From: Acidimicrobiia bacterium
GTDB taxonomy: Bacteria > Actinomycetota > Acidimicrobiia > Spongiisociales > ZC4RG35
Reading direction: 5' to 3'
DNA length: 64,000 nt
Assembly (NCBI GenBank): GCA_965214265.1
Contig: CBDCBK010000010.1
Coordinates: 537,369 to 601,368 of the forward strand
Below, piece by piece: positions 20,604 to 46,099 of the stretch (position 1 is its first letter; each line of letters opens with the position of its first letter). The notes beneath the pieces were generated by a model. The model saw only the letters and a list, made by a program, of their open reading frames with translations. It made no database searches and was not told the DNA's origin. The position numbers were made by a program, and so were the translations under genes.

Positions 20604-21952
20604 CCTCCTTTCAGATCGCGGCGGTGGTGGGAATTGCCCTGTGCATCGTGGCCTCGGGGTTTTTTTCCGGTTCCGAGACGGCGCTTCTGGCCCTGCCGCG
20701 CGAGCGCGTTCCGCAGTTGGCGGGGGAAGGACGGAGGGGCGAAAAAGTGGTGCTTATGGTCCGAAGCCTGGAAAGAACCCTGGCCATGTTGTTGGTGGCC
20801 AACAACTTCGTCAACATCCTGGCGGCCTCTCTGACCACCATCCTGGCGGTTGACCTCCTCTCTTTGGTGAGCAGTCGCCGGTTGGGAGAGGTGTGGGGAC
20901 CCTGGTTGGCCACCGGGGTGTTGACTTCCGTCATCCTGGTGGTAGGCGAAATCACTCCCAAGACCATCGCTGCCCGCCATCCGGAGAAGTATGCGTGGCG
21001 AGTGGCCCCCGTGTTGTGGGTGGTGTTCCGCGGGCTTGGCCCCATAGCCCGGGTCTTCTCTGCGGTGAGTACCGTCCTCCTGCGACTGATGGGAGTCCGC
21101 TCCGACCGTCTCAGCCCCGCCACCGAGGAAGATATCCGAGCCTTGGCGGTGCTCAGCGCCGAGGCGGGAGAAATCGATGTCGCCGAGCGGGAGATCATCG
21201 AGAAGCTCTTCGAGTTGGCCGACCGCCCGGTGCGGGAGGTGATGACCCCTCGGCTGGAGGTGATCTCCCTCGAGGCCCCGGTTGACTTCGAGCAGATCCG
21301 CAAAGAGGTGGCCCGGACCAGCCACTCCCGCTACCCGGTGGTGGAGGCGGGGGGTGACCTCGATGCCCTGGTGGGGATTCTCTATGTGAAGGACTGGATG
21401 CGATACGAGGATCCCACCGTCGCGGAGACGATCGCCCCCGGGAAGATGATTCGCGATCCGCTGGTGGTTCCGGAGAGCTATCCGATCTTGTCGACGGTGA
21501 TGGTCATGCGCCGCAACCGGATCAGCCTGGCGGTGGTGATCGACGAGCACGGTGGGGTGGAAGGGGTGGTTACCGCCAAGGACCTGGTTTCGGAGTTGGT
21601 GGGAGGCATTCAGGACGAGCACGATCCCGCCGCGCCTATGGCGTTTCCCACCGGGCCCGGCCGCTGGGTGGTGGAGGGTCGGCTGCCGGTGGAAGACCTG
21701 GCCGAGATGATCCCCCGTCCGCTTCCCTCCGGTCCCTATGACACGGTGGCCGGGCTCTATCTTCACCTGGCGGGCAGGATCCCTCGGCCCGACGACGCAA
21801 CCTCCGTTGACGGGGTCGGTTTTCGGGTGCTCACCATGGACCGTCTGCGCATCTCCCGCTTGGCGGTGTGGGTGGATCCCCCGCCCGATGAGGAAACAGG
21901 TCCTCTCTTGACACAGGGGAAGGGTCTGATTGGTCGGGACGGCCGGATTTGA
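20600..21952 (+). CDS. HlyC/CorC (CNNM) family transporter: DUF21 + CBS pair + CorC_HlyC domains
   Basis: FFSGSETALLAL (DUF21). EVMTPRLEV and VIDEHGGVEGVVTAKDLV (CBS). C-terminal transporter-associated domain. The GTG start overlaps the upstream stop. Confidence 0.85.
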   Translation: MTSFQIAAVVGIALCIVASGFFSGSETALLALPRERVPQLAGEGRRGEKVVLMVRSLERTLAMLLVANNFVNILAASLTTILAVDLLSLVSSRRLGEVWGPWLATGVLTSVILVVGEITPKTIAARHPEKYAWRVAPVLWVVFRGLGPIARVFSAVSTVLLRLMGVRSDRLSPATEEDIRALAVLSAEAGEIDVAEREIIEKLFELADRPVREVMTPRLEVISLEAPVDFEQIRKEVARTSHSRYPVVEAGGDLDALVGILYVKDWMRYEDPTVAETIAPGKMIRDPLVVPESYPILSTVMVMRRNRISLAVVIDEHGGVEGVVTAKDLVSELVGGIQDEHDPAAPMAFPTGPGRWVVEGRLPVEDLAEMIPRPLPSGPYDTVAGLYLHLAGRIPRPDDATSVDGVGFRVLTMDRLRISRLAVWVDPPPDEETGPLLTQGKGLIGRDGRI

Positions 21953-22007
21953 ACCGGCGACCTCAGCGTCCCGAACGCTGCGCGCTGCCAAACTGCGCCA
22001 CGTCCCG
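21931..22007 (-). tRNA. tRNA-Pro (anticodon CGG)
   Basis: The reverse complement reads CGGGACGTGGCGCAGTTTGGCAGCGCGCAGCGTTCGGGACGCTGAGGTCGCCGGTTCAAATCCGGCCGTCCCGACCA. It has a 7-bp acceptor stem (CGGGACG/CGTCCCG), a D-arm GCGC/GCGC, an anticodon stem CAGCG/CGCTG with loop TTCGGGA, a T-arm GCCGG-TTCAAAT-CCGGC, and an encoded CCA. Coordinates +-1. Confidence 0.85.
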
Positions 22008-23577: not shown

Positions 23578-25041
23578 ATGATTGACCTCAACATCGTTCC
23601 CGAGGTGAGGGAACGGGCCGCCCGCCGGGCGGCCGAGTTGGACTTGGTTATCCCCACCTTCGCCCAGATGCGCTCTCCCGAGTTGGTCCCCGACTCGATC
23701 AGGGAACAGCTGACCCGGATCGGTCTGTGGGATCTGCACCCGGCCAACCTGTTCAGGGTTACCTGGCGGAACCAACCCGTCCCCCAGGGCGGGGGGTTCG
23801 GAGGGCTGAACTATCTGGAGTTTCCCCCGGAGCTGACCGGGACCGAGGCCCGGGTGGCGGCGCTGGTGGGCAAGTGGTTCCCGACCGGCGCTCACAAGGT
23901 GGGGGCCGCCTTCGGTTGCCTGGCGCCCCGGCTGGTGACCGGCCAGTTCGATCCCACCTGCCAGTTGGCGGCCTGGCCGTCCACCGGCAATTACTGTCGG
24001 GGAGGAGCGTACGACTCGCGCATTTTGTCCTGTCGGTCCATTGCCATTTTGCCCGAGGGGATGAGCCGTGAGCGATTTGACTGGCTGGACACCGTCGCCG
24101 ACGAGGTGATCGCCACTCCCGGCTCGGAGAGCAACGTCAAGGAGATCTTCGACAAATGCTGGGAACTTCGGCGCTCGGGCAGGGACATAGTCATTTTCAA
24201 CCAGTTCGACGAGTTCGGCAACTATCTGTGGCACTACTCGGTGACTGGTCCGGCCTTTGCCGAGTTGGCGGAGGAACTTATGGGTCCCGGCGACCGCCTG
24301 GCCGGGGTGGCCCTCACCACCGGTTCATCGGGGACCCTGGCGTCGGGCGACTATCTGAAGGAACAACACCCCCACAGCCGGATCGCCGCCGCCGAGGCCC
24401 TGCAGTGCCCCACCATGCTCCGGGGAGGGTTCGGGGAGCACCGCATAGAAGGGATCGGCGACAAGCACATTCCCTGGATACACAACGTCCGCAACACCGA
24501 CATGGTGGTGGCCATCGACGACGCGGCGCCCCTGGGGCTGATCCGGCTCTTCAATGAGCCGGCCGGCCGCGACTACCTGGTCTCCCAGGGTGTGTCGCCC
24601 GAGGCGACCGAGAGTCTCCATCTGTTGGGCATCTCGGGGGCGGCCAATCTGCTGTCGGCCATCAAGATGGCCAAGTGGTACGAGTTGGGGCCCCGCGACC
24701 TGGTGCTCACCATCCTTACCGACTCCATGGATCTCTATCGCAGCCGGCTGGTGGAACTCACCGCTGCCCACGGGGAGCTGACCACTGCCGATGCGGCGGG
24801 GATTTATCACCGCTACCTGCTGGGCGCCTCCACCGATCACATGGCGGAGTTGACCTATCCCGAGCGCCGGCGCATTCACAGCCTCAAATACTTCACCTGG
24901 GTGGAACAACAGGGCAAGTCCGCTTCCGAGCTCGAAGACCAGTGGTACGACCCCGAATATTGGGAGGAGATCCGCCGGGCCGGAGAGAGGATCGATCCGC
25001 TGATCGACGAGTTCAACCAGCTAGCGGCCTCCGGCGTCTGA
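23578..25041 (+). CDS. PLP-dependent fold-type-II enzyme (cysteine synthase/CBS-like beta-replacement family) with ~170-aa C-terminal extension
   Basis: GAHKVGAAFGCL (Lys) and STGNYCRGGAYDSRILSC match the S/TGNT glycine loop. No CBS pair. First gene of a 3-bp-spaced operon with the deaminases and XDH. Confidence 0.7.
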   Translation: MIDLNIVPEVRERAARRAAELDLVIPTFAQMRSPELVPDSIREQLTRIGLWDLHPANLFRVTWRNQPVPQGGGFGGLNYLEFPPELTGTEARVAALVGKWFPTGAHKVGAAFGCLAPRLVTGQFDPTCQLAAWPSTGNYCRGGAYDSRILSCRSIAILPEGMSRERFDWLDTVADEVIATPGSESNVKEIFDKCWELRRSGRDIVIFNQFDEFGNYLWHYSVTGPAFAELAEELMGPGDRLAGVALTTGSSGTLASGDYLKEQHPHSRIAAAEALQCPTMLRGGFGEHRIEGIGDKHIPWIHNVRNTDMVVAIDDAAPLGLIRLFNEPAGRDYLVSQGVSPEATESLHLLGISGAANLLSAIKMAKWYELGPRDLVLTILTDSMDLYRSRLVELTAAHGELTTADAAGIYHRYLLGASTDHMAELTYPERRRIHSLKYFTWVEQQGKSASELEDQWYDPEYWEEIRRAGERIDPLIDEFNQLAASGV

Positions 25042-25043
25042 GC

Positions 25044-25619
25044 ATGGTCTTGCCTCTCCCCCTCACCATGCGTTGGGATCTGCCCCCCTGGGCGCACGAT
25101 CTGGTGCAACCCGAGCAACGCTTTCCAACCGTTTCGGAGCGGATGGGGTTGGCTGTCGAGCTTTCTCGCCGCAACGTGGTCGAGAGGACGGGTGATCCGT
25201 TCGGGGCGGCGGTGTTCGATCTTTCCACCTTTCGTCTCCTGGCGCTGGGAGTCAACGTGGTGGTGCCGACCTCCACCGTTGCAGCCCATGGCGAGATCGT
25301 GGCTCTCTGTCTGGCCGGTGTAGCGGTGGGGAACTACGACGTGGGGGTGGGAAATGGGGATCCCGTCGAGTTGGTCACCAGTTGCGCTCCTTGCATGATG
25401 TGCCTGGGTGCGATAATGGGGTCGGGGGTGTCCAGCCTGGTGATCGCCGCCCGCTCCGATGACACCCGGTCGCTCGGATTGGGTAAGAGCAGCCGGCCTC
25501 CCGGCTGGGTGGAGGGCTTGAGGCGGCTGGGGATCGCGGTGACAGAGGATGTCCTGCGAGCCGAGGCGGTGGAGGTGCTCCGGGAATATGTGGGTGGGAG
25601 AGGGGGTATCCAGGACTGA
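25044..25619 (+). CDS. CDA-fold nucleoside/nucleobase deaminase (guanine-deaminase/TadA-like), paralog 1
   Basis: AAHGEIVALCLAG is the H(A/G)E zinc and catalytic-Glu motif. TSCAPCMMCLGA is PCxxC. ~190 aa. Confidence 0.75.
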   Translation: MVLPLPLTMRWDLPPWAHDLVQPEQRFPTVSERMGLAVELSRRNVVERTGDPFGAAVFDLSTFRLLALGVNVVVPTSTVAAHGEIVALCLAGVAVGNYDVGVGNGDPVELVTSCAPCMMCLGAIMGSGVSSLVIAARSDDTRSLGLGKSSRPPGWVEGLRRLGIAVTEDVLRAEAVEVLREYVGGRGGIQD

Positions 25620-25621
25620 GC

Positions 25622-26215
25622 ATGGTCTTGCCTCTCCCCCTCACCATGCGTTGGGATCTGCCCCCCTGGGCGCACGATCTGGTGCAACCTGAGCAAGGCT
25701 TTCCAACTGTTTCGGAGCGGATGAATTTGGCTGTCGAGCTTTCCCGCCGCAACGTGGCGGAGAGGACGGGTGGCCCGTTCGGGGCGGCGGTGTTCGATCT
25801 TTCCACCTTCCGTCCCCTGGCGCTGGGAGTGAACCTGGTGATGCCCACCGCTTCCGCCGCCGCCCATGCCGAGATCGTGGCTCTCTGTCTGGCCGGCCAA
25901 GCGTTGGGAAACTACGACCTGACTCTGGGCAACGGTGGGCCAACCGAGTTGGTTACCAGCTGCGCTCCCTGCGCGATGTGCCTGGGTGCGGTGCCCTGGT
26001 CGGGGGTGTCCAGCCTGGTGATCGCGGCCCGCGAGGAGGACGCCCGGTCGGTTGGATTCGACGAGGGCCACCGGCCCCCCGACTGGGTGGAAGGCCTGAA
26101 GCGACGGGGGATTGCGATCACCGAGGATGTGCTCCGGGCCGAGGCGGTGGGAGTGCTCAGGGACTATGTGAGGGGAGGAGGAGTCATTTACAACAGCTCC
26201 AAGACGGAGGAATAG
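25622..26215 (+). CDS. CDA-fold nucleoside/nucleobase deaminase, paralog 2 (tandem duplicate)
   Basis: AAHAEIVALCLAG and TSCAPCAMCLGA. The first ~50 codons are near-identical to paralog 1. Confidence 0.75.
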   Translation: MVLPLPLTMRWDLPPWAHDLVQPEQGFPTVSERMNLAVELSRRNVAERTGGPFGAAVFDLSTFRPLALGVNLVMPTASAAAHAEIVALCLAGQALGNYDLTLGNGGPTELVTSCAPCAMCLGAVPWSGVSSLVIAAREEDARSVGFDEGHRPPDWVEGLKRRGIAITEDVLRAEAVGVLRDYVRGGGVIYNSSKTEE

Positions 26216-26219
26216 CAGC

Positions 26220-27683
26220 TTGCATGAGGTTCAGCGCCGGGCGGACCTGACAGACCGCTATGAGTCACCTTCCACCGCGGAGGAGGCTCTGGCGATCCTG
26301 GCCCGCCACCGGGAGCGAGCCCGACTGATAGCCGGAGGGACCGACTTGGTGCTGGAGATGCGCCGCGGCGTGCGCACAGGGGTTGAGATGCTGGTGGACA
26401 TCTCCCGGGTAGGAGGCCTCGACCGGATCGAACAGGACTCCGAGGGGGTCATACACTTGGGACCATTGGTGACCCATGCCGATGTCGTCGCCTCCGACCT
26501 GGCATGGAACCGGGGGCTTCCCCTGGCGCAGGCGTCGCTGGAAGTGGGCGCCCCTCCCCTCCAGGCCCGCTCCACGGTAGTGGGCAACCTGGTCACCGCC
26601 AGCCCGGCCAATGACACCATCTCCGCCCTCACCGCTCTGGACGCCTGGCTGACCATTCGCTCCGAGAGAGGCGAGCGCCGGGAGTCCCTGGCCGACTTCT
26701 ATCTCGGATTCCGTCGCACGACCCTCGCTTCGGACGAGATGGTGACCGGCGTGAGCTTCCCGGGCCTGGCCGACGGCCAATCCAGTGTGTTTGTCAAGCT
26801 AGGACTGCGGATGGCGCAGGCCATCTCGGTGGTGCATATGGCTTTGTTTCTCGAACGTGACGCTGAGGGTGTGACCAGCCAGGTTCGTATTGCCCTGGGG
26901 AGTGTGGCGCCGGTGATCGTCCGGTCGCCCGGGGCCGAGGAGGCGCTATTGGGCCGGGAGCTGGACGAGACGACCATCGCCGCCGCTGCGCGGGCGGCAG
27001 CTGAGGGAATAAGTCCCATCGATGACCTGCGAGGAACGGCGGACTACCGACGGTGGACAACCGAGGTGATGGTCCGCCGGGCTCTGACCGCCCTGGCAAA
27101 CGGCGAGGAACGGCGGACGGTTCCCCACCGGGCAGTCCATTTCGGAGCTTCCCGTCAGCCGACCTTGGCCGAGGCGCATTCCCACCGAGAGGGTGACCCG
27201 ATTGAGGCGGTGGTCAACGGGGCGCCGGTCATCACCCGGAGCGGCGCCGATCTGACCCTCCTCGATTGGCTTCGGGATGTGGCCGGCCCGGCGGCCGGTT
27301 CGCCTCTGACCGGAACCAAGGAGGGATGCGCGGAAGGAGAGTGCGGGGCGTGTCTGGTGTTTCTGGACTCCGAGGCGGCCCTCTCGTGTCTGACTCCCGC
27401 CCCCCGCGCCCACCGGGCGGTGATCGTCACCGTGGAGGGGCTGGCCGACGGCGGGCTCAATCCGGTTCAAGCCGCTTTCTGTGAAACGGGGGCTGTCCAG
27501 TGCGGCTACTGCACCCCTGGCTTTCTCATGTCGGCCACCAAGCTCCTGGAGAAGATCTCGGATCCCACTACCGAGGAGATCAGAACCGCCCTGTCCGGCA
27601 ACCTGTGCCGCTGCACCGGTTACTACCCGATCATCGAGGCGGTCTCATTAGCAGGCGGACCGGCCTCCGGAGCGCCCCGGTGA
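26220..27683 (+). CDS. xanthine dehydrogenase family: FAD-binding subunit fused to [2Fe-2S] subunit (CoxM+CoxS-like)
   Basis: The N-terminus has the FAD-binding PCMH and CO-dehydrogenase flavoprotein C-domain. The C-terminus has GCAEGECGACLV...CGYCTPGF...CRCTGY, the two 2Fe-2S clusters. Confidence 0.85.
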   Translation: MHEVQRRADLTDRYESPSTAEEALAILARHRERARLIAGGTDLVLEMRRGVRTGVEMLVDISRVGGLDRIEQDSEGVIHLGPLVTHADVVASDLAWNRGLPLAQASLEVGAPPLQARSTVVGNLVTASPANDTISALTALDAWLTIRSERGERRESLADFYLGFRRTTLASDEMVTGVSFPGLADGQSSVFVKLGLRMAQAISVVHMALFLERDAEGVTSQVRIALGSVAPVIVRSPGAEEALLGRELDETTIAAAARAAAEGISPIDDLRGTADYRRWTTEVMVRRALTALANGEERRTVPHRAVHFGASRQPTLAEAHSHREGDPIEAVVNGAPVITRSGADLTLLDWLRDVAGPAAGSPLTGTKEGCAEGECGACLVFLDSEAALSCLTPAPRAHRAVIVTVEGLADGGLNPVQAAFCETGAVQCGYCTPGFLMSATKLLEKISDPTTEEIRTALSGNLCRCTGYYPIIEAVSLAGGPASGAPR

Positions 27684-29929
27684 GCGTCGGACGGTCGTCG
27701 CCGAGACGCGACGCCCTCTCCAAGACAACGGGCGAGGCGCTCTACCCGGCGGACCTCTACCGACCCGATGCCCTTTACGCCAAGGTGGTGTTCAGTGGTC
27801 GGCCCCATGCCCGCATGGTGGCGATGGATGTCTCCGGGGCTCTGGCCGCGCCGGGAGTGGTGGAGGTGATTACTGCCGCCGACGTGCCCGTCAACGAATA
27901 CGGGTTGACCCGTTTCGATCAGGCGGTGCTGGTGGGGCCGGGAGGAACGGGCCGGAGCGCGGTTCCTGCCGAAATCAGCCGTTGGGAGGGAGATCAGATC
28001 GCGGTGGTGGTGGCCGAGACCCGCCGGGAGGCGGAGGGGGGGGCGGAGCGGCTCCGGGTCGAATGGGAGGACCTTCCCCTGGTCCCCGATGTGGAGGCGG
28101 CTCGGACCGACTCGGTGCTGGTGCATCCTGAGAACGGTTTGGGTACCAACATCTACAAGCAGCTCAAGTTTCGGGTGGGGAATATGGAAGAGGGATGGCG
28201 GGCGGCGGAGGTGGAGGTGAGCGGTACTTATGTGCTTCCGCATCAGGAGCACGCTTACCTCCAGCCGGAGGCGGCCCTGGCCTATTTCGATTCCCAGGAC
28301 CGGATCACCGTGGAGATCGCCGGGCAGTGGACCTATGAGGACCGGGAGCAGATCGCCCACGCCTTGGATGTGGATCCTGAGCGGATCAGGGTGATCTACC
28401 CGGCCATCGGTGGAGCGTTCGGAGGCCGAGAGGACATGTCACTTCAGATCGTGATGGCCCTGGCGGTCCGGAAGCTGGCCCGAAGGGGCATTCACCGGCC
28501 GGTGAGGGCAGTGTGGTCGCGTGAAGAAAGCATTGTCGGTCACCACAAGCGGCACCGGGCGGTTATCCACGCTCGCTGGGGCGCCACCCGGCAAGGCCGG
28601 CTGACCGTGGTGGAAACCGAAGGCTGGCTGGACGCCGGGGCGTACAACTACACCTCCGACAAAGTGCTGGGCAACATGCATCTGTGCTCGGTGGGGCCCT
28701 ATCGGGTGCCCAACTTGTGGGTGGACTCCCGGGCGGTATACACCCACTCGGTCCCCGGCGGCGCCTTTCGGGGCTTCGGAGCACCGCAGGGCGCCATGGC
28801 CGCCGAAGGGCAGATGAACCGCCTGGCGGCGGAACTGGGCATGGACCCGGTTGCCCTGCGCCTTCTCAACTGTTACCGGGAGGGGGATGTGGGCGCTTGG
28901 GGAACGGTCGTCCCACCGGTGGTGAGCCTTCCCGAGGTCATCGAAGCCTGCTCCGACCGGGCGGGGTGGGGAGATCCCCCGAGGTCTGATATATCCCCGT
29001 TCCCCGTGTTTCGATCCCTGCCTCCCGACTCGGGCCGCCAGCGCCGGGGACGGGGGTTCGCCTGTGGGTTGAAGAATGTTGGTTTTTCCTTCGGGTTCCC
29101 CGAGCGGTGCGAGGCCACCGTCGAGCTGTGGGGGGACGAGGAAGTGGAGCGGGTGGTGCTGTATCACGGCGGAGCAGAGGTGGGACAGGGCGCCCACACC
29201 GCCTTCGCGCAAATGGCTGCGGAGGCGGCCGGAGTGGATGTCGGGATGGTGGAGACCCAGTATTCCGACACTGCCCACACCGGCGACTCGGGATCGGCTT
29301 CCGCATCCCGGCTGACCTGGATGGCTGGCAACTCCATCCTGGGCGCTACCGAGGAGGCCCAGAAACGATGGCTGGATGGAGATCGGCCTGCTCTCGGCAG
29401 ATTTCGGTTCGTTCCCCCGCCCACCGAGACCTTCGATCCCCAGACCGGCGCGGGGGAGCTCAACTTCGCCTACGGGTGGATGGCGGAGGCGGTGGAGGTG
29501 GTGGTGGACCTGGACACCGGGCACCTGAAGGTGGAATCGGTGGTCTGCGCGGTGGATGTGGGAAGGGCTGTCAATCCGGGATTGGTGAAGGGGCAGATAG
29601 AGGGAGCGGTGGCGCAGGCCCATGGCTACGCGATCACCGAGCGGCTGCTGACAGAGGATGGGAAGATCCTCAATCCCCACCTGAGCACCTATCTGATTCC
29701 GGGGATCGGGGACATCCCCGAGCGGGTGGAGAGCGTCATCCTGGAGATCCCCGACCCGAGAGGCCCATGGGGCGTTCGGGGAATGGCGGAGATGCCCTTC
29801 ATCCCGCTGGCGCCGGCAATTTCCGCCGCCCTGTTCGACGCGGTGGGAGTATGGTTCGACGAGCTTCCTCTCACTCCCGGAGAGGTGGCAGCGGGTTTGC
29901 GATCCAAAAAAACAATGCCCTTTTGGTAA
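27680..29929 (+). CDS. xanthine dehydrogenase family molybdopterin-binding large subunit
   Basis: GEALYPADL...GFGAPQG...Ald_Xan_dh C-terminal motifs (GQGAHTAF, AVDVGRAVNP). The GTG start overlaps the upstream stop. ~750 aa. Confidence 0.85.
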   Translation: MSVGRSSPRRDALSKTTGEALYPADLYRPDALYAKVVFSGRPHARMVAMDVSGALAAPGVVEVITAADVPVNEYGLTRFDQAVLVGPGGTGRSAVPAEISRWEGDQIAVVVAETRREAEGGAERLRVEWEDLPLVPDVEAARTDSVLVHPENGLGTNIYKQLKFRVGNMEEGWRAAEVEVSGTYVLPHQEHAYLQPEAALAYFDSQDRITVEIAGQWTYEDREQIAHALDVDPERIRVIYPAIGGAFGGREDMSLQIVMALAVRKLARRGIHRPVRAVWSREESIVGHHKRHRAVIHARWGATRQGRLTVVETEGWLDAGAYNYTSDKVLGNMHLCSVGPYRVPNLWVDSRAVYTHSVPGGAFRGFGAPQGAMAAEGQMNRLAAELGMDPVALRLLNCYREGDVGAWGTVVPPVVSLPEVIEACSDRAGWGDPPRSDISPFPVFRSLPPDSGRQRRGRGFACGLKNVGFSFGFPERCEATVELWGDEEVERVVLYHGGAEVGQGAHTAFAQMAAEAAGVDVGMVETQYSDTAHTGDSGSASASRLTWMAGNSILGATEEAQKRWLDGDRPALGRFRFVPPPTETFDPQTGAGELNFAYGWMAEAVEVVVDLDTGHLKVESVVCAVDVGRAVNPGLVKGQIEGAVAQAHGYAITERLLTEDGKILNPHLSTYLIPGIGDIPERVESVILEIPDPRGPWGVRGMAEMPFIPLAPAISAALFDAVGVWFDELPLTPGEVAAGLRSKKTMPFW

Positions 29930-30041
29930 TAGAGCGGCAAGACTGGTATATATTTAGGGCTGGAGGTCGGTTAGTCTGCCGACACAAGCCACTTTTTAGT
30001 CGAGTGCCGTTGGCCCGACGAGCAAGCGGAAGGAAAACAAA

Positions 30042-31832
30042 ATGAGAAAACTGAAATTAGCCATTGCCTTGATGGCTGTCTTGGCGTTGTTGGCTGCGGC
30101 CTGCGGCGGCGATGACGGCGCAGGGGATACGGCTGCTGCGGATGCTGCTGCGGCGGCTGCCGAAGCCGAAGCCGTTGAGGCTCAGGCTGCTGCGGATACG
30201 GCTCAGGCTGCTGCGGATACGGCGCAGGCTGCTGCGGATACGGCGCAGGCCGAGTTGGAAGCCACGCAGGCCGAGTTGGAAGCTACCCGCGCTGCTGCGG
30301 CGGCCGGTGATGCGGACGCGCAGGCGATGTTGGAGGCTGCTGAGGCCGAGGCTGCCACTCAGGCTGCTGCTGCGGCGGCTGCCGAGGCTGCTGCGGAGGC
30401 TGCTGCAATGGAAGCCGATGATGCCCAGAAGGCACTGGCAGAGTCGACGATGGTGGATGCCCCCGAGGTCCGGGAAGCCGAGGTTGCTATGGGTTTCAAC
30501 GCCTGTTGCGCCGATTCGGCCTTTTGGCAGATTCCCGTCGATTTGGGCTGGTGGGATGATTTGAACATAACCATCGTCCCCAACTCGCCTACCTATCACT
30601 ACTTCACCGCCAGCGCCGACGCCATCGCCTGGTTGCGAAACGGTGAAGGCAACGTGGCCCCTGGCTGGGTGCCGGGACTGTTCGGGTCCTTGGAGACCTT
30701 TGGTCAGGAAATCCCACCGATCTTCTTCGCGGACATCTATGTCGGCTATGCCATCCTGGTAGCGCCTGACAGCGATTCGAAGACTGTTATGGAGTTCGTG
30801 GAGGAAGGTATGTCCTTCCCGGACGCGGCCTTGGCGGCCGTGCAGCAGCTGGTCGGCGAAGTTGTCCACATTCCGCCGCACAGCACACAGCAGGCCCAGT
30901 ACACGAACGCGTTCTTCGCCTATCTGCCCGAGTGGTGGGAGGCTTACCAGGAAGACATTTCCGCTTTGGACGGTGAAGGCAACCCCTTGGTGTTGCTGGG
31001 CCGCGACGGCGCGCCACTCCTGGACGATGACGGCAACGTTCAGCCGATTCGCATTACGACCAACGACTGGCGCAATTACGCCAATCCTCAGTACGTTGAT
31101 GATCCCACGATTGTGCAGCTTTCGGCTGTTCCGGGCCGGATCGAGTACGCCATGCCCTATGGCGCTCCGACCCTGGTGCAGATGATGCGCAACGGTTGGG
31201 ATCCGCTGATCAACTTCGGGATGATGATCGAGCACGACCCGTTCTCCCAGCAGACGGCCATCGCCAGCTCCACCACAGGCGGCATCGGCCTATTGGCCAA
31301 CCGCGAGTGGGTGGAGGCGAACAAGGACCTGGCCTATCGGACACTTTCTATCGGCTTTCGGACCTTCGAGTTCCTCGAGGATCCCGAGACCCAGTACCAG
31401 GGGTGGGAGATCGAGGCCAATCTCATCAACGAGAAGCGCCAGTTGAGCATGGAGCCCGAGGACATCGGAATCATCTGGACGACCATCGACCCGTCGTTCA
31501 CCTGGGAGGACCAGGAGGCCCTTTGGGACTTGAGCCTGCCCAGCTACCACCCAGAGACGGTGTTCAGGACCCAGGTGGAACTTCTGAAGGCCAAGGGAGT
31601 CCTGTCTGCGACCTATGACACGCAGGCTGGGCTCGAGCAGTTCTTGTTGGCCCAAGAGCTCTACTATGACATGAAGGGCATGCAGGACCGTTCCGACGTT
31701 CTCTTCGCTAGGACTGAGGGATTGGATCTTTCCGATAGCCAGTCCGCTTTGGTCGAGCAGGCGCAGGCCTACTATGACATCTATGACTTCTATGACGCTG
31801 AGCGCTTCTTGGAGGCTGCCCTTATTGGGTAA
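30042..31832 (+). CDS. ABC transporter substrate-binding lipoprotein (NitT/TauT, NMT1/SsuA-like) with ~130-aa Ala/Glu-rich N-terminal linker, copy 1
   Basis: MRKLKLAIALMAVLALLAAACGG is a lipobox. The low-complexity AAADTAQ/ELEATQA linker is followed by a periplasmic binding domain. Permease and ATPase genes lie downstream. Confidence 0.75.
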   Translation: MRKLKLAIALMAVLALLAAACGGDDGAGDTAAADAAAAAAEAEAVEAQAAADTAQAAADTAQAAADTAQAELEATQAELEATRAAAAAGDADAQAMLEAAEAEAATQAAAAAAAEAAAEAAAMEADDAQKALAESTMVDAPEVREAEVAMGFNACCADSAFWQIPVDLGWWDDLNITIVPNSPTYHYFTASADAIAWLRNGEGNVAPGWVPGLFGSLETFGQEIPPIFFADIYVGYAILVAPDSDSKTVMEFVEEGMSFPDAALAAVQQLVGEVVHIPPHSTQQAQYTNAFFAYLPEWWEAYQEDISALDGEGNPLVLLGRDGAPLLDDDGNVQPIRITTNDWRNYANPQYVDDPTIVQLSAVPGRIEYAMPYGAPTLVQMMRNGWDPLINFGMMIEHDPFSQQTAIASSTTGGIGLLANREWVEANKDLAYRTLSIGFRTFEFLEDPETQYQGWEIEANLINEKRQLSMEPEDIGIIWTTIDPSFTWEDQEALWDLSLPSYHPETVFRTQVELLKAKGVLSATYDTQAGLEQFLLAQELYYDMKGMQDRSDVLFARTEGLDLSDSQSALVEQAQAYYDIYDFYDAERFLEAALIG

Positions 31833-31874
31833 GCTTTCGGTAGCGATTGGCTAGTAGGTAAATAGAGATGCTCC

Positions 31875-31917
31875 GAGCGCGGGGCAGGACGGTAAAACCC
31901 GTCCTGCCCCGCGCTTC
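31875..31917 (+). terminator. GC-rich hairpin between SBP and permease genes (intra-operon attenuator/terminator)
   Basis: gagcgcggggcaggacgg-taaaac-ccgtcctgccccgcgcttc is a perfect 18-bp stem. It is conserved, with a different loop, at 37978..38017. Confidence 0.6.
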
Positions 31918-31959
31918 GGCCTGTAGGTAAGGACCGCGAGGGCGAGGAAGAGAGATACA

Positions 31960-32910
31960 GTGACCACCACAAGCACCGATGTTCTTGATGTGAGAGCGGC
32001 GGCGCATCGTGAAAAGCGGCGCCGCCAGATTGCCTATAGCATCTATCTGGTCCTCGGGTTAATGCTGTTTTTGCTGTTTTGGCAGTTGCTGGCCTCGCCT
32101 TTTTCGCCTTTTTTCTATCTCGTACCGCCGCCCATTGATGCCGTCAGGCACTTCGGGGAGAACCTGTTTTTCAGTCAGCGGATGTTGGAGCGGTATGTTC
32201 ATGCTTGTCCGGATCTGTTGGACGAGTTGGAGTTGACGGGGGGAGGGATGTTCGATCTTCCCGATCGCTGTTTTGGGTATATTCTGCATTTGGTGCGGAC
32301 TACCCGCAATATCATGATCGCAGTTACGCTGGGGACGGTGGTTGGTTTGTCGGTGGGGCTGAGCAGTTTGGTTTTCCCGAAGATCGCGGATGTGGTGACG
32401 CCGATTGCTGGTTTTTTTGGGACTACCCCGATTTTCATAGCGGCGCCTTTTTTCGTGATCTGGTTCGGGATCGAGTATCCCTTGATGACCACCATCGGGG
32501 TGGTTGTTTTCTACACCACCCTTCTCATGTATTTCTTTAGCCGCCGGGCGGCGGAGAATATACCGGTGGGGATCATTGAGTCAGCCCTCACCCTGGGGGG
32601 AGACCGCCGTACTATTTTCCGGTGGGTGTATTTGCCGGGGACGATACCCGAGATCGCGGGAGGCTTTCGTATCGCGTTGGCCGGCGCCTGGGGACTGGGT
32701 ACGCTGGTGGAGGTGCTGGGAATACAGATGGGAGGAGGATTTCTTATTCGTATGTGGAGCTTTGCGATGGGCCTTTTGGAGGGGCCGGCCGCGGTGGTTT
32801 CACTGATTCTTTTCTTCGGTGTGTTGGCTGTGGTAGTCGACGGTATCTTGGTGCTGTTTATCCGTTTCGTCACCAAGTGGTCCGAGGCCGGTCGCCGGCT
32901 GGGTTTGTAG
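31960..32910 (+). CDS. ABC transporter permease (NitT/TauT family, TauC/SsuC-like), copy 1
   Basis: Six TM helices. ESALTLGGDRRTIFRWVYLPGTIPEI matches the EAA-loop motif. Confidence 0.85.
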   Translation: MTTTSTDVLDVRAAAHREKRRRQIAYSIYLVLGLMLFLLFWQLLASPFSPFFYLVPPPIDAVRHFGENLFFSQRMLERYVHACPDLLDELELTGGGMFDLPDRCFGYILHLVRTTRNIMIAVTLGTVVGLSVGLSSLVFPKIADVVTPIAGFFGTTPIFIAAPFFVIWFGIEYPLMTTIGVVVFYTTLLMYFFSRRAAENIPVGIIESALTLGGDRRTIFRWVYLPGTIPEIAGGFRIALAGAWGLGTLVEVLGIQMGGGFLIRMWSFAMGLLEGPAAVVSLILFFGVLAVVVDGILVLFIRFVTKWSEAGRRLGL

Positions 32911-32923
32911 GCAAGGAGGAACT

Positions 32924-33703
32924 ATGTCGTCAACTGTTGTGAGCTTTGAGAATCTGTGGTGTGTGTTCGAGCACCGATCCGGGCAATTGGTGCATGCCCT
33001 TGAGGATGTCAATTTCCATGTCGATCCCGGCGAGTTTGTGTGTGTCGTGGGGAGGTCTGGGCACGGTAAGACCACTCTGCTGAGGGTGCTGGCCGGGCTT
33101 CAGCCTCCTACCGCCGGTGAGGTGAAGCTGGGCGACACTCCCGTGACGGGGCCGGGTAGCGACCGGGCCATGGTTTTTCAGCAGGACACGGTGTTTCCTT
33201 GGTTGCATGTCCGCGAGAACGTTGAATTCGGTCTCAGGGCTAACAAGCTTCCCGAGGACGAGCGGAACGAGATCACCAATTACTGGTTGTCGGCGGTGGG
33301 ACTGGAGGAGTTCGCTGACTCTTGGCCGCGGGAGCTTTCTGGGGGCATGAGAAAGCGGGTGGCCTTGGCGGCGGCGATGGCGGTGGGCTCGGATGTTGTG
33401 CTCATGGATGAGCCTTTTGGGTCTGTTGACTATTTCACGCGCCGTAATCTTCATGAGGTTCTTTTGAATTTGTGGTTTGAGACCAAGAAGACCATCTTCT
33501 TTGTCACCCATGACATTGAGGAGGCGCTGATTCTTGCTGACCGGGTGATCCTCTTGGCTGAGGGCAAGTTGGTGGACGACATCGCGGTTTCTCTCCCTCG
33601 TCCTCGTAACGAGGATGTCCGGGCCACCCCTGAGGCGGTGGGTGTGTTCAAGCTGATCTTGGCGCATCTGGGTATCACCGAGGAGGAGGCGACGAAGGTT
33701 TGA
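32924..33703 (+). CDS. ABC transporter ATP-binding protein (NitT/TauT family), copy 1
   Basis: GRSGHGKTTLLR (Walker A), LSGGMRKRVALAAA (signature), VLMDEPFGSVD (Walker B) and FVTHDIEEA (H-loop). Confidence 0.9.
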   Translation: MSSTVVSFENLWCVFEHRSGQLVHALEDVNFHVDPGEFVCVVGRSGHGKTTLLRVLAGLQPPTAGEVKLGDTPVTGPGSDRAMVFQQDTVFPWLHVRENVEFGLRANKLPEDERNEITNYWLSAVGLEEFADSWPRELSGGMRKRVALAAAMAVGSDVVLMDEPFGSVDYFTRRNLHEVLLNLWFETKKTIFFVTHDIEEALILADRVILLAEGKLVDDIAVSLPRPRNEDVRATPEAVGVFKLILAHLGITEEEATKV

Positions 33704-34920
33704 ACCAGCCTGCCCGCTTCCGAAGCCTTTATTGGATTGGATGGCTGATTTGGGCTGTCTTCCTGGCTCCTTGGTTGCTCATTCAACTGCCTGAAAGTCT
33801 TCCCTTCGTTTCCTGGACACATGGGGATGGTGTGATCAACGTCACGTGGTCGTACCTCGTTTCTTGGCCGGTTTTGTTGCTGGTCTGGCCGGTTGTGTTC
33901 CGCCCGAGTGGGGTCAAGAACCGCCTGGTCAAGATGGGACAGGGGATAGCGGCGGGGCCGGCGATGCTGTTGGCCGGTATGCGCCGCAGCCCGCTCTTCT
34001 TCATCTCCTGGGCGGTGTTGCTGCTAGCGTGGCAAGTGGCGTCTTACATTGCGCCTACGGGAATCCTCGAGCACCCCCTGGTTCCCGGATGGGACTACGT
34101 GTTCGGTGAATCCCTCTCCAGAATGTCCGGGGACTGGACCGTCCTTGGGTTTGACCTCGGGTTTGTAAATTTCCAGGTCGCGGACCTGGCGCCTTATCCC
34201 GCCTATGGCGGAGAGGGGACCGTGCCGGCCATTTTCCTCGCCATCGCTTTTCACTCGGGCGTGACCCTTTTCCGGCTGATGTGTGGCATGTCGATCGGTT
34301 TCACGCTCGGTCTCCTGACCGGATTGGCCATTCCCTATTGGCCGGCGCTGCGCCAGTCCGCTTGGGCGCCCATGAACTTTCTGCGGATGATCCCCCTCCT
34401 GGCGGCGATTCCCTGGTTGCAGTTTGCCCTGGGCTCCACCCTCTTTGGTATCACCATCTATATTGCATTCGGGGTTTGGACGACGCTGGTGGTGGCCACT
34501 ATGAACTCGGTGGCCAACGTGCCTGACCGGTACATCGAGAGCGCCCGTACCCTGGGCGCGTCCCGCCCGTGGACCTATTTCAAGGTGATAGTGCCGGGGT
34601 CGATTCCCGAGTTGCGCACCGCCATGTTGCTCGCCATGGGAGGGAGCTGGTCGCTGGCCATTGCCGCCGAGTTCCTGGGTTTCCCCACCGGGCTGGGATA
34701 TATGGCAGCGGTGGCGGTGCAGGAAACCAACACCGCCCGGCTGGTGATAGTGGCGTTTGTCGTGGCTGGTTATTCTCTCACGACCTTCTACTTGCTCAAC
34801 GAAGGATTCAAAAAAGCGGTTAGTTGGATGCCACAGCGCGCCACCGGGAAGACGGATATCAGCAGGGTGGCCGGGGCGGCCGGAGCGGGGGGCCGCGCGG
34901 AAACCCTAGAGGGCGGATAA
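33700..34920 (+). CDS. second ABC transporter permease (NitT/TauT family) with ~150-aa N-terminal extension, copy 1
   Basis: ESARTLGASRPWTYFKVIVPGSIPEL matches the EAA-loop. Multi-TM. Translationally coupled to the ATPase by a 4-bp overlap. Confidence 0.8.
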   Translation: MNQPARFRSLYWIGWLIWAVFLAPWLLIQLPESLPFVSWTHGDGVINVTWSYLVSWPVLLLVWPVVFRPSGVKNRLVKMGQGIAAGPAMLLAGMRRSPLFFISWAVLLLAWQVASYIAPTGILEHPLVPGWDYVFGESLSRMSGDWTVLGFDLGFVNFQVADLAPYPAYGGEGTVPAIFLAIAFHSGVTLFRLMCGMSIGFTLGLLTGLAIPYWPALRQSAWAPMNFLRMIPLLAAIPWLQFALGSTLFGITIYIAFGVWTTLVVATMNSVANVPDRYIESARTLGASRPWTYFKVIVPGSIPELRTAMLLAMGGSWSLAIAAEFLGFPTGLGYMAAVAVQETNTARLVIVAFVVAGYSLTTFYLLNEGFKKAVSWMPQRATGKTDISRVAGAAGAGGRAETLEGG

Positions 34921-35010
34921 GGCCAGCGCCGCGGAATCAGCGTTCGCGGTTGGGTGCCGCGTCGGGATTGACCATCCTGGTTTTTCCCTGCATGTGAGGT
35001 TGCCGGCCCG

Positions 35011-35916
35011 GTGCTGACCGGCATCGTCTTCGGGTTTATCACGGCGGTGACGCTGGGGATCAACCTTCTGCTCACTGCCGTGGTGGCCCGGCGCTTCGGC
35101 GTGCTGCGCTCCACTACCGCCACTCTGAGCCTGGCCCTCTTGGTGATGGTCGCCTGGGCACTCCTCATCGACGTGCCGTTCGAAATCACCACTGACCAAC
35201 TTGTATTACTGGCCTTCTTGGGCTCCTGTGCCGGCGGAGCGTTCCTGTGCGGCTACACGGCCCTCCGACTCGGTCCGATCTCGGTGGTGAGTCCGATCGG
35301 CGCTCTGGGGGGCGCCATGACGGTGGTCTTCTCATTCTGGTTGCTGGGGGAAAGACCCGGCGCGGTGCAGTGGGCGGGAATACCGATCGCCGTACTGGGA
35401 GCGGTATTGGCATCCGTGGTGATCAAGCGCGGAGTCAAGATTCGACTGGTCACCTGGGGGCCGGTCTTCGCCATGATCGGCGTGTTTGTGGGATCGCTCT
35501 CCAACGCCGGCCTGAAGATCCCCATCAGGGATGGACTCGACTCCAACCTGACCGTCATCACCCAGCGGGTCTACACGGTGGCTTACGTCGCTCTGGTGTT
35601 GGTGATTGTCACCCGGGTGACAGAACAGCGTCGCCGAAGGGGAGACCCCCGGTACGCGGGGAGCCACCCGGTGAAGATTACCTGGAAAACAGGATGGCTG
35701 CTGGGCGTGGTGGGAGTGATCGACGCCGTCTCCTTCATATCATTCGGATACGGTTTGGCGTATGCTCCAGCCTGGCTGATCGGGATCATCTCCCAAAGCG
35801 GACGGATAATAGCCGTGATCGGCGGGGTGATATTCTTCAAAGAACGACTTCAATCCCTGCAGTGGACAGGCATAGCCCTGGTAACGGTCGGCGTGGCCAT
35901 GTCCGTCGCCGGCTAG
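35011..35916 (+). CDS. EamA/DMT-superfamily transporter (10 TM), paralog 1
   Basis: Two EamA halves. GTG start. Preceded by an overlapping 7-codon uORF at 34994..35017. Confidence 0.8.
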   Translation: MLTGIVFGFITAVTLGINLLLTAVVARRFGVLRSTTATLSLALLVMVAWALLIDVPFEITTDQLVLLAFLGSCAGGAFLCGYTALRLGPISVVSPIGALGGAMTVVFSFWLLGERPGAVQWAGIPIAVLGAVLASVVIKRGVKIRLVTWGPVFAMIGVFVGSLSNAGLKIPIRDGLDSNLTVITQRVYTVAYVALVLVIVTRVTEQRRRRGDPRYAGSHPVKITWKTGWLLGVVGVIDAVSFISFGYGLAYAPAWLIGIISQSGRIIAVIGGVIFFKERLQSLQWTGIALVTVGVAMSVAG

Positions 35917-36147
35917 GACCGCTACCACAAAGAGGGCGAACGCTATTCCGTTCTTCCTCTTCGGGGTCCCCTCTCCTCTATGACGACCCGCGCCCCGACC
36001 ACTGCTGTTGGAAAGTTGTTATCGACGAGCTTCCTCACCCCTGGAGAGGAAGCAGCGGGTTTGCGATCCAAAAAATAATGCCCTATTGGTAACAGAACGC
36101 CAAGAGTTGAGTATATTTGAGGTTCAAGCGAGCGGAAGGAAAACAAA

Positions 36148-37937: not shown

Positions 37938-37977
37938 GCTTTCGGTAGCGATTGGCTAGTAGGTAAAAGAGAAGCTC

Positions 37978-38017
37978 CGAGCGCGGGGCAGGACGGGTTA
38001 TCGTCCTGCCCCGCGCT
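37978..38017 (+). terminator. GC-rich hairpin (copy-2 counterpart of the intra-operon attenuator)
   Basis: gcgcggggcaggacg-ggttat-cgtcctgccccgcgc. The stem is identical and the loop differs. Confidence 0.55.
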
Positions 38018-38062
38018 TCGGCCTGATAGGTAAGGACCGCGAGGGCGAGGAAGAGAGATACA

Positions 38063-39013: not shown

Positions 39014-39026
39014 GCAAGGAGGAACT

Positions 39027-41023: not shown

Positions 41024-41113
41024 GGCCAGCGCCGCGGAATCAGCGTTCGCGGTTGGGTGCCGCGTCGGGATTGACCATCCTGGTTTTTCCCTGCATATGA
41101 AGCTGTCAACGCG

Positions 41114-42010: not shown

Positions 42011-42029
42011 GATCGCCGCCCGAGGAGGT

Positions 42030-42246
42030 ACTCGTTGAGGGATTCAAGAAGGTCGTTGGTCGGATGCCACAGTGCACGGGAAAGTGAACAGATGGCAGCA
42101 GGGTGGCCGCGGCGGAAGGAGCAGGAGGCCGCGGTGAAACTCTCGACGACGGATAGGGCCTCGGCCGCGGAATCGGCGTTCGCGGTCGAGTGGCCAATCG
42201 GGATTAGTCAGCCTGGCTTTTCCCTGTATGTGAAGCTGTCAACTAG
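42030..42246 (+). pseudogene. relic of permease-2 3' end plus EamA leader (junction of an extra [permease-tail+EamA] sub-duplication)
   Basis: ctcgttgagggattcaagaaggtcgttggtcggatgccacag resembles LLNEGFKKAVSWMPQ. Frame not maintained. Confidence 0.6.
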
Positions 42247-43152: not shown

Positions 43153-43183
43153 CACTGCCGCTAGCCGTTGGTTATGAAGAGCT

Positions 43184-43300
43184 GTGAAAGAAATCGTGGG
43201 TGGAGGATTGATTCTTGTCCCACGGGGGTTCACATTGAAGATGTACCAAACACCGAGACGGTCTGTCTTGGCATCGTTCGGACTTCGTCAAGGGATCAAA
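43184..43300. repeat. conserved ~110-nt noncoding element, copy A (3' of EamA-3, 3' of truncated hydrolase)
   Basis: TGAAAgaAAtCG..GG.GGaTTGATTCT.GTC....GGGGGTTCAcA.TGAaGa....AAACACCGAGAcGGTCTG recurs at 47026..47120 and 50005..50130. No consistent reading frame. Confidence 0.6.
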
Positions 43301-45811: not shown

Positions 45812-45851
45812 GCTCCCGGTTCGATTGCCTAGTGGATAGAAAAGGCGCCGC

Positions 45852-46025: not shown

Positions 46026-46099
46026 GACCCGCTGCGGTTGGGCGGCGCGTCGGGACCTAGGCGTCATGGCCTCTTTCCGTTTATGAAGCTGTCCACGGG

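Follow-up and report, generated by a model that had tools for sequence, protein, structure and literature searches.

The reductive pathway of uric acid breakdown was worked out in 2025 for Escherichia coli and clostridia (Li et al. 2025, PMC12507026; Liu et al. 2025, bioRxiv 10.1101/2025.04.24.650524). The first enzyme, XdhD or DOPDH, reduces urate to 2,8-dioxopurine; the ring is then reduced by YgfK, and SsnA and HyuA open the rings. The ureido groups are removed by YgeW (with the carbamate kinase YqeA making ATP) and by YgeY, and YgeX, a lyase dependent on pyridoxal phosphate (PLP), converts 2,3-diaminopropionate into pyruvate and ammonia (PMC12507026; bioRxiv 10.1101/2025.04.24.650524). Both papers mention variants in Chloroflexota and Actinomycetota; 'YgeX' is counted there merely as Pfam PF00291, and no enzyme resembling threonine synthase (ThrC) or cysteine synthase (CysK) is mentioned. 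Our literature searches likewise found no paper tying either kind of enzyme to this pathway. Here we analyse five closely spaced open reading frames (ORFs), all on the + strand at positions 23578-29929 of a 64,000-nt stretch of DNA from an Acidimicrobiia bacterium (the window, whose numbering is used for all its coordinates), together with the gene that precedes them. The five encode in order PLP487, a fold-II PLP enzyme of 487 amino acids; deaminases B and C, both of the cytidine deaminase (CDA) fold; and the FAD/FeS and molybdopterin (Mo) subunits of an enzyme of the xanthine dehydrogenase (XDH) family. The preceding gene encodes a second fold-II PLP enzyme that resembles ThrC. Related loci that were compared with the window carry labels of the form L001.

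Our favoured reading, to which we give a probability of about 0.5, is that the locus is a purine-catabolic unit of a marine or sponge-associated bacterium, made from two modules of the reductive uric-acid system, with the pair of PLP enzymes replacing YgeX and the middle enzymes of the pathway encoded elsewhere. We infer the substrates and reactions from gene structure, family membership, residue conservation and conserved neighbourhoods, all of which are observed. In the entry module deaminase C would hydrolyse guanine to xanthine and ammonia, using the two-glutamate zinc mechanism of the guanine deaminase NE0047. The Mo/FAD/2x[2Fe-2S] enzyme would hydroxylate xanthine, most likely to urate, with electrons passing via the Fe-S centers and FAD to pyridine nucleotide. 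In the exit module the ThrC-like enzyme and PLP487 would take the place of YgeX, most likely converting the last C3 amino acid into pyruvate and ammonia through a PLP-aminoacrylate. Candidate substrates are 2,3-diaminopropionate and ureido precursors such as albizziin, and one of the two enzymes may handle the D-configuration arising from a D-specific hydantoinase. Deaminase B would be a lineage-specific, selected paralogue that has acquired a new substrate or a role as a heterodimer partner. The urate reductase, ring reductase, SsnA, hydantoinase, carbamoyltransferase and carbamate kinase would all lie elsewhere in the 2.6-Mb genome. A first-pass annotation of this DNA had regarded the operon as not assignable to a known pathway. 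This no longer holds, because orthologues of PLP487, of its ThrC-like partner and of this type of XDH occur, in many phyla, in variants of the reductive uric-acid cluster that contain SsnA, YgfK, YgeY, YgeW-like carbamoyltransferases, carbamate kinase and HyuA. The annotation had envisaged as the contrary case a canonical cluster with uricase, allantoinase and a generic CysK; the cluster is indeed one of purine catabolism, but it is not of the uricase and allantoinase kind and its PLP enzyme is not a generic CysK.

The neighbourhood evidence comes from 80 loci selected through PLP487 alone, with one genome per species (there are more such loci), that were analysed by tblastn, neighbour clustering and profile annotation. 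Their PLP487 proteins are 62-69% identical to that of the window (92% in the sister assembly L003). By the labels of the metagenome-assembled genomes (MAGs) they come from at least eight phyla, the labels being Chloroflexota, Acidimicrobiia and other Actinomycetota, Terriglobia, Halanaerobiales, Desulfobacterales, Deltaproteobacteria, Polyangiaceae, Bipolaricaulota and Vulcanimicrobiota. A ThrC-like gene adjoins PLP487 in 51 of the 80. Carbamoyltransferases resembling aspartate or ornithine carbamoyltransferase (often two of them) are present in 36 loci, carbamate kinase in 34, a HyuA-type dihydropyrimidinase in 28 and an XDH in 19; SsnA scores above its cut-off in 12, YgeY is found in nine, and YgfK is above cut-off in three. 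At least one pathway marker other than XDH is present in 55 loci, and several also contain luciferase-like (F420) or dihydroorotate dehydrogenase-like reductases and BMP-type purine ABC transporters. The genes recur in the order GntR, carbamoyltransferase, carbamoyltransferase, carbamate kinase, ThrC-like, PLP487 and then XDH, SsnA or YgfK, an arrangement found in MAGs labelled Chloroflexota, Acidimicrobiia, Terriglobia, Halanaerobiales, Desulfobacterota, Myxococcota and Bipolaricaulota. Together these genes make up the cluster of the reductive uric-acid (2,8-dioxopurine) pathway. Of the upper pathway, SsnA, ring reductases (of YgfK, UacX or F420 type) and urate reductases (of XdhD or TIGR03311 type) occur in the related loci L012, L030, L039, L087 and L168. 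In L087, a metagenome locus centred on SsnA, the order is carbamoyltransferase, carbamate kinase, ThrC-like, PLP487, SsnA, YgfK, XDH FAD/FeS subunit and XDH Mo subunit, the last being 50% identical to that of the window. A sister clade of PLP487 with 40-45% identity occupies the same slot beside ThrC-like and SsnA genes in L110, L114, L128, L129, L135 and L163, and the association of the PLP pair with SsnA reaches beyond the highly conserved main clade.

In the E. coli arrangement ygeW-ygeX-ygeY-hyuA-yqeA the YgeX slot lies between the carbamoyl-transfer genes and the rest, and this is the position of the PLP pair in the related loci. These loci differ from the clusters of E. coli and Clostridium in often having two carbamoyltransferases and in lacking YgeX. 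Neither the 80 PLP487 loci nor 80 further metagenome loci centred on SsnA yielded a YgeX orthologue, and the matches to E. coli YgeX among all 160 (at most 66 bits, 22-31% identity) fell without exception inside ThrC-like genes. YgeX is a fold-II PLP enzyme like both PLP proteins of the window, but it is one gene where the window has two. BLASTP of E. coli YgeX against the two PLP proteins of the window gave 34 and 31 bits over 49-80 residues, and judged by these alignments YgeX is not orthologous to either of them. Because the loci have no YgeX and the pair fills the YgeX slot, the ThrC-like protein and PLP487 probably replace it.

PLP487 has a CysK-like core at approximately residues 86-392, with about 85 amino acids before it and about 95 helical amino acids after it. 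The first-pass annotation had described an extension of ~170 amino acids at the C-terminus; there are indeed some 170-180 extra residues, but they are divided between the two ends. CysK by comparison is a single domain of ~300 amino acids, to which cystathionine beta-synthase (CBS) adds CBS domains. The fold and active-site motifs are common to PLP487, CysK, CysM and CBS, and PLP487 has in addition its extensions and a TrpB-like GAHK lysine motif. In our alignment A1 of the family there is no variation at Lys107 (in GAHKVG), in the STGN loop for the carboxylate, at Gln209, in the GSxGT loop for the phosphate or at Ser353, and the enzyme should thus be capable of forming an aminoacrylate from an alpha-amino acid bearing a beta leaving group. 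The curated profiles are not reached, with scores of 74.9 bits for cysK (cut-off 350.95), 70.4 for cysKM (cut-off 344) and 52.3 for CBS (cut-off 510); the suspicion that this is no generic CysK was therefore well founded. An AlphaFold model of PLP487 (predicted local distance difference test score 70) compared with the PDB using Foldseek matched only CysK, beta-cyanoalanine synthase and CBS; the extensions were unmatched and no closer solved relative was found. Relatives of PLP487 number at least 8000 sequence clusters, and those among the matches listed from outside the lineage of the window are 67-71% identical to it. Full-length relatives that retain both extensions extend down to 32-37% identity, with 342 representatives at E <= 1e-30 among 1.84 billion.

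The ThrC-like protein scores 178.8 with TIGR00260, above the cut-off of 167.1 for this thrC model, and 282.4 with NF006050, below its cut-off of 303; other ThrC models are also below their cut-offs. Its nearest solved relative is Mycobacterium tuberculosis ThrC (2D1F; 185 bits), with which about one third of residues are common. In the ThrC of Thermus thermophilus, the phosphate group of O-phosphohomoserine is contacted by what we take to be the Thr of STGNT, the Arg of NPxRxEGQKT and the Asn of GNAGN. The corresponding sequences in the ThrC-like family are STGNA, NPYMTEGKKT or NPFTAEGKKT, and GDG(C/N)I, conserved in 44 of 44 aligned members (i.e. that of the window and 43 others). Because the presumed phosphate-site residues are replaced in every one of the 44, the protein is unlikely to be a true threonine synthase.

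These data bear on the idea that the two PLP genes encode ordinary threonine and cysteine or cystathionine synthases that happen to lie beside purine genes, or else suppliers of sulfur or selenium for maturation of the Mo cofactor. The TIGR00260 score and the intact CysK-type active site of PLP487 would agree with a biosynthetic role, as would the genes for aspartate-semialdehyde dehydrogenase and aspartate kinase that lie at 52-54 kb of the window. A labile S or Se ligand is required by related Mo hydroxylases, and SelA and SelB, which serve selenocysteine incorporation, are encoded 6 kb upstream; moreover, a third of the PLP487 loci have no pathway gene nearby. Yet neither the loss of the presumed ThrC phosphate site nor scores so far under the CysK, CysM and CBS cut-offs would be expected of such enzymes, and the additional domains of PLP487 persist in relatives of only 32-37% identity. 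In at least seven phyla the pair stays next to carbamoyltransferase, carbamate kinase and XDH, in the slot that YgeX has in E. coli, and it clusters with genes of the lower pathway (carbamoyltransferase and carbamate kinase) and not with those of cofactor maturation. We therefore consider this explanation very improbable.

A stronger form of the favoured reading is that the ThrC-like protein and PLP487 constitute an unrecognised two-enzyme exit that replaces YgeX in Chloroflexota, Acidimicrobiia and at least six other phyla, and that perhaps goes beyond a lyase reaction. For example, one enzyme may invert or open a D-configured ureido- or diamino-propionate while the other performs a beta-replacement that keeps the C3 unit as serine or cysteine instead of releasing pyruvate. 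In the sponge and marine lineage the pair would then have been recombined with duplicated, neofunctionalised deaminases, a PucD-like XDH and an importer with a new family of binding protein. We offer this only tentatively, and think it rather less likely than not. The families are widespread and strongly conserved and are now annotated as 'cysteine synthase' and 'threonine synthase', so that their assignment would correct many annotations. The authors of the 2025 studies noted the variants in Chloroflexota and Actinomycetota without resolving the PLP step, and with the pair assigned the pathway would be complete in major environmental phyla. Alternative enzymes for engineered urate-degrading probiotics would be a further gain.

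Turning to the entry module, the guanine deaminase of the known cluster has the amidohydrolase fold, whereas the deaminases of the window have the CDA fold. In E. coli guaD lies near xdhD, with ygfK-ssnA-ygfM-xdhD, and in the window a deaminase likewise lies beside the Mo enzyme. The key residues of the CDA-fold guanine deaminase NE0047 of Nitrosomonas europaea (PDB 2G84 and 4HRQ) are F48, N66, F141 and the proton shuttles E79 and E143, and its C-terminal flap shuts the active site and restricts the size of the ligand (PMC9081823). Deaminase C is 47% identical to NE0047 over 179 residues and belongs to the same length class, with an N-terminal extension common to both. In the alignment it has every one of the named residues (in the motifs HAE, PCAMC, GFDEG and AVPWSG), and the flap is also present, as GVIYN within the C-terminal sequence GGGVIYNSSKTEE. 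We read deaminase C as a probable guanine deaminase. An NE0047-type deaminase is in an operon with an XDH of the window type in the unrelated genome L168, and in L167 (Actinomycetia; Mo subunit 79% identical) a CDA-fold deaminase is also paired with a window-type XDH.

The XDH-family enzyme of the window has a complete set of cofactor domains (PF01315, PF02738, PF20256, PF00941, PF03450, PF00111 and PF01799 in Pfam). Its Mo, 2x[2Fe-2S] and FAD domains are common to PucABCDE of Bacillus subtilis, XdhAB of Rhodobacter capsulatus (PDB 1JRO) and bovine xanthine oxidoreductase. It differs from these known enzymes in the fusion of FAD and then FeS domains, in scores below cut-off, and at one active-site position that is discussed below. 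In the FAD/FeS subunit the FAD domain (residues 13-290) is fused upstream of the two [2Fe-2S] domains (residues 337-475), which is the reverse of the order in the xdhA profile TIGR02963. The cysteine motifs are intact (CAEGECGAC...C and CGYCTPG...CRCTGY), and orthologues of 475-495 amino acids are found in L030, L072, L078, L080, L167 and L169. The best profile for the Mo subunit is PucD (TIGR03196) at 489.6 bits, under the cut-off of 783.65 (the L078 orthologue reaches 620 bits), compared with XdhA_XDHase at 383.8 (cut-off 780), TIGR02965 at 262.6 (cut-off 849.5) and the XdhD family TIGR03313 at 245 bits, all below cut-off. In the PDB it is most similar to 4-hydroxybenzoyl-CoA reductase and nicotinate dehydrogenase, and then to XDH. 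The Mo subunit has at least 8000 relatives, and those among the matches listed from outside the window's own lineage are 63-70% identical.

Alignment of the Mo subunit with chain C of bovine xanthine oxidase (HMMER and MAFFT) shows that the equivalents of Gln767, Glu802, Phe914, Phe1009 and Glu1261 are all kept. Arg880, which is important for the turnover of xanthine in the bovine and R. capsulatus enzymes, is replaced by Asn in the window protein (Asn332, in KVLGN) and in every close orthologue, although the alignment of this loop may be a few residues off. We had considered this as evidence against a xanthine substrate, but have downgraded it. The position is not decisive, because E. coli XdhA has also lost the arginine (it has Ala in the same alignment), and the FeS-Mo fusion enzyme found in related loci, which matches TIGR03311, retains it.

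Three types of Mo enzyme are in fact found in these clusters: PucD-like with a FAD/FeS partner, as in the window; the FeS-Mo fusion, of 860-900 amino acids, that passes the TIGR03311 cut-off and has the architecture of the clostridial urate reductase; and an XdhD-like type (L039 and L046). From its architecture and context the fusion appears the better candidate for a urate reductase. Both the window type and the fusion are present in L030 and L168, where the fusion adjoins SsnA or an F420-type reductase, and in L168 the window type adjoins the NE0047-type deaminase. Because of this co-occurrence, and of the pairing with deaminases in L168 and L167, the reaction xanthine to urate is favoured for the window enzyme. 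This agrees with the first-pass annotation, for which guanine to xanthine to urate was the conservative reading; the residues of deaminase C, the PucD score and the L168 operon make it the reading that best fits the deaminase and XDH genes of the operon. A further link to the pathway is seen in L169 (Chloroflexota), where an XDH of the window type lies with YgeY, a carbamoyltransferase and the PLP pair.

Alternatively, the Mo enzyme might itself be the urate reductase (2,8-dioxopurine dehydrogenase) of this lineage, i.e. an analogue of XdhD-YgfM that takes electrons from NAD(P)H via its FAD domain, with the rest of the scheme unchanged. It is the sole Mo enzyme within 10 kb of SsnA or YgfK or of the PLP pair in L087, L078, L072 and L080, and the order SsnA, YgfK, FAD/FeS, Mo in L087 mirrors ygfK-ssnA-ygfM-xdhD of E. 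coli. The Asn at the Arg880 position is the residue that is found in E. coli XdhD and in the XdhD-like enzymes of L039 and L046, but the lack of Arg in E. coli XdhA means that this position does not discriminate. A FAD module is present as in XdhD-YgfM (PMC12507026), but the identity to XdhD is just 27%, the TIGR03313 score of 245 bits compares with 490 for PucD, and Glu802 is kept where XdhD has Gln. Moreover the enzyme shares an operon with a guanine deaminase, the product of which is xanthine and not urate, and it coexists with the TIGR03311-type enzyme in L030 and L168. We consider a urate reductase unlikely here, and retain oxidation of xanthine as the preferred assignment. Two insertions that affect related loci were also observed, both in Chloroflexota. 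A protein of ~600 amino acids with the domain DUF6909 is encoded between the FAD/FeS and Mo genes in L072 (13691-15868), L078 (7666-9468) and L080 (12174-13910), and may be an accessory or maturation factor for window-type XDHs. In L169 a RelB/ParE toxin-antitoxin pair (17263-17792) is inserted between the ThrC-like and PLP487 genes.

The first-pass annotation treated both deaminases alike as being of the GuaD type. The CDA fold is common to both, but they are not equivalent. Deaminases B and C are both ~45% identical to NE0047, and B keeps the His, the first Glu (E79) and both Cys of the zinc site, together with Asn66 and Phe48, in the motifs HGE (HAE in NE0047) and PCMMC. By contrast GFDEG is replaced by GLGKSS, changing F141 to Leu and E143 to Lys (GLGGSR in the L001 and L003 orthologues, with E143 changed to Gly). 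The Trp of the AVxWSG motif is lost and the protein ends in GRGGIQD without the flap; these changes are also found in L001 and L003. Because the second proton-shuttle Glu and the flap are lost, we read deaminase B as probably unable to use the NE0047 mechanism on guanine, and it may have a new substrate or a role as a partner in a heterodimer. It is under purifying selection and is not decaying, with dN/dS of 0.18-0.27 compared with 0.12-0.17 for deaminase C.

A tandem pair of NE0047-type deaminases is seen only in this Acidimicrobiia lineage. The B type accounts for ~28 of 87 database clusters related to deaminase B, and since none of these is less than 66% identical to the window copy, the B type is an invention of this marine or sponge lineage. 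Over their first 300 nt the two genes of the window are 90% identical (25038-25337 compared with 25616-25915), and the first 25 codons encode identical peptides. Deaminases B and C are 78% identical as proteins in the window but 62% in L001 and L003, which indicates a probable recent local gene conversion in the lineage of the window.

The altered pocket of deaminase B, with no flap to limit ligand size, raises the possibility that the operon acts on some other amino-substituted N-heterocycle, for example a pterin, isoguanine, 8-oxoguanine, a triazine or a host alkaloid, which comes close to the bolder reading of the first-pass annotation. The compound would be imported by the amplified transporter that follows the operon, and the CysK-like enzyme would carry out a beta-replacement or elimination in which it takes part. 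CysK relatives that alkylate N-heterocycles are known, as are the heterocyclic beta-substituted-alanine synthases of plants. The Asn in place of Arg880 and PDB matches that place 4-hydroxybenzoyl-CoA reductase and nicotinate dehydrogenase ahead of XDH could be accommodated, as could an amplified putative binding protein of no known family and the absence from the window of the middle genes of purine breakdown. We nevertheless regard this as improbable. Deaminase C matches NE0047, which is very specific for guanine, at every described active-site residue, and L084, the deaminase of which is of the C type only, manages with the canonical form alone. Furthermore, the XDH and the two PLP genes have orthologues within purine (urate) clusters of several phyla. 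In general the deaminase and XDH part of the operon is ordinary; its interest lies in the two uncharacterised PLP families, the altered but selected deaminase paralogue and the unusual active site of the XDH. The diverged deaminase and the XDH without Arg880 pose smaller but testable questions of structure and function.

A number of observations weigh against the favoured reading of a unit drawn from two modules of the reductive uric-acid system. The largest gap in the argument is the absence of the middle part of the pathway. The 64-kb window contains no SsnA, YgfK or other ring reductase, hydantoinase, carbamoyltransferase, carbamate kinase, YgeY or second Mo enzyme, and none of these genes was found within ~8-10 kb past either end, as seen in a 742-kb contig of another assembly that has identical proteins at the edges. 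A complete pathway is not demonstrated for this organism. The outgroup L086 (PLP487 71% identical) still has two carbamoyltransferases, carbamate kinase, ThrC-like, PLP487 and an amidohydrolase, so it is the lineage of the window that has moved or lost the middle part. If the sponge symbiont truly has the entry and exit modules alone, this would point to a different use of the PLP pair. As one lyase would suffice for diaminopropionate, the need for two is unexplained. The search for YgeX covered the loci alone, and YgeX could lie elsewhere in those genomes. Since PLP487 or SsnA served to select the loci, and a single phylum supplies many of them, shared ancestry inflates the counts, and about a third of the PLP487 loci have no pathway gene within 10 kb. 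Lastly, none of the five operon proteins reaches any curated equivalog cut-off, and at the Arg880 position the Mo subunit shares its Asn with a urate reductase, E. coli XdhD.

The features of the window are collected in Table 1. The first-pass annotation had described a compact five-gene operon with spacings of 3, 3, 5 and -4, and the ORFs, family matches and recurrence in relatives bear this out. The intergenic gaps are 2, 2 and 4 nt and the last two genes overlap by 4 nt (i.e. start minus preceding end is 3, 3, 5 and -3). Its start at 23578 proved to be one gene too late, omitting the conserved partner of PLP487; the transcription unit starts at the ThrC-like gene, which ends 71 nt ahead of PLP487 and is parted by the minus-strand tRNA from the gene for a CNNM transporter that precedes it. 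The boundaries rest on spacing and the tRNA, because a scan for promoters and terminators over 19.8-32.2 kb gave no site exceeding the shuffled expectation, and none stood out inside the unit. The tRNA was the sole match to Rfam at gathering thresholds in the whole window, with no riboswitch ahead of the unit. Identical gene order, with 83-92% protein identity, is found in the assemblies L001 (ENA contig) and L003 ("bacterium isolate RHO1_bin_21"), and the order in L084 (TARA contig) is as in the window but with a single deaminase. The family matches and the recurrence of gene order in these three far exceed chance.

Table 1. Positions of the genes and repeated segments discussed in the text.
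Feature	Position	Strand	Evidence or remark
S-layer-homology/RCC1 protein, 1219 aa	7260-10919	-	S-layer-homology domain and at least nine RCC1 repeats
SelA and SelB	14476-17627	+	
WhiB	18468-18725	-	
tRNA gene	21934..22007	-	Rfam RF00005, 65 bits; upstream boundary of transcription unit
Threonine-synthase-like fold-II PLP enzyme, 428 aa	22220..23506	+	PALP 1e-77; conserved PLP487 partner; N-terminal CxxC...CPDH motif
PLP487, CysK/CBS-like fold-II PLP enzyme, 487 aa, N- and C-terminal extensions	23578..25041	+	ATG; PALP 8e-12
Deaminase B, diverged CDA-fold paralogue, 191 aa	25044..25619	+	dCMP_cyt_deam_1 1.6e-9
Deaminase C, probable NE0047-type CDA-fold guanine deaminase, 197 aa	25622..26215	+	dCMP_cyt_deam_1 7e-12; PDB 2G84 1.8e-43
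XDH-family FAD/[2Fe-2S] subunit, 487 aa	26220..27683	+	TTG; FAD_binding_5 9e-36, CO_deh_flav_C, Fer2, Fer2_2 2e-31
XDH-family molybdopterin subunit, PucD-like, 749 aa	27680..29929	+	GTG; MoCoBD_1 2e-67, MoCoBD_2, Ald_Xan_dh_C
Amplified transporter region	30021-47000	+	
Tandem segment, first copy	30021-36126	+	~6.1 kb
Linked putative uptake system: 596-aa lipoprotein, NitT/TauT-type permease, ATPase, permease	30042..34920	+	First copy of amplified block
Tandem segment, second copy	36127-42230	+	~6.1 kb
Second lipoprotein copy (split)	36148-37937		
Split copy, 151-aa ORF	36148-36603		Signal peptide and linker
Split copy, 449-aa ORF	36588-37937		
Third lipoprotein copy	44207-45811	+	
Five alpha/beta-hydrolase paralogues	47202-52086	-	68-87% identical
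Aspartate-semialdehyde dehydrogenase and aspartate kinase	52145-54405	-	Housekeeping

The genes downstream of the XDH encode the lipoprotein, permease, ATPase and permease of the putative uptake system, and then an EamA exporter. The amplification of these adjacent transporters reported in the first-pass annotation is real; it comprises a tandem segmental duplication, in which the two copies of the ATPase are 100% identical, together with additional copies that bring the EamA genes to four altogether. The transporters may serve the pathway of the operon, as the first-pass annotation suggested; what is conserved is their linkage, the first block being linked to the operon in L001, L003 and L084 also. 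The lipoprotein has no sequence match in Pfam, NCBIfam or the PDB. It is presumed to be the binding protein, and its domain of ~450 amino acids may represent a new family of substrate-binding protein. The two ORFs of the split second copy, which is likewise on the + strand, suggest a frameshift in the Ala/Glu-rich linker, from either a pseudogene or an assembly error. NCBIfam matches of the ABC genes to SaoA and SaoP, which are linked to selenoproteins, are far under cut-off and were rejected; we read them as generic similarity to NitT/TauT systems. The amplified region ends at the aspartate-semialdehyde dehydrogenase and aspartate kinase genes, beyond the five hydrolase paralogues.

On the other side of the unit, SelA and SelB and the WhiB gene lie ~6 kb upstream of the operon in an arrangement that is kept in L001 and L084. 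Further upstream is the gene for the S-layer-homology and RCC1-repeat protein, a surface protein that is unusual for an actinobacterium.

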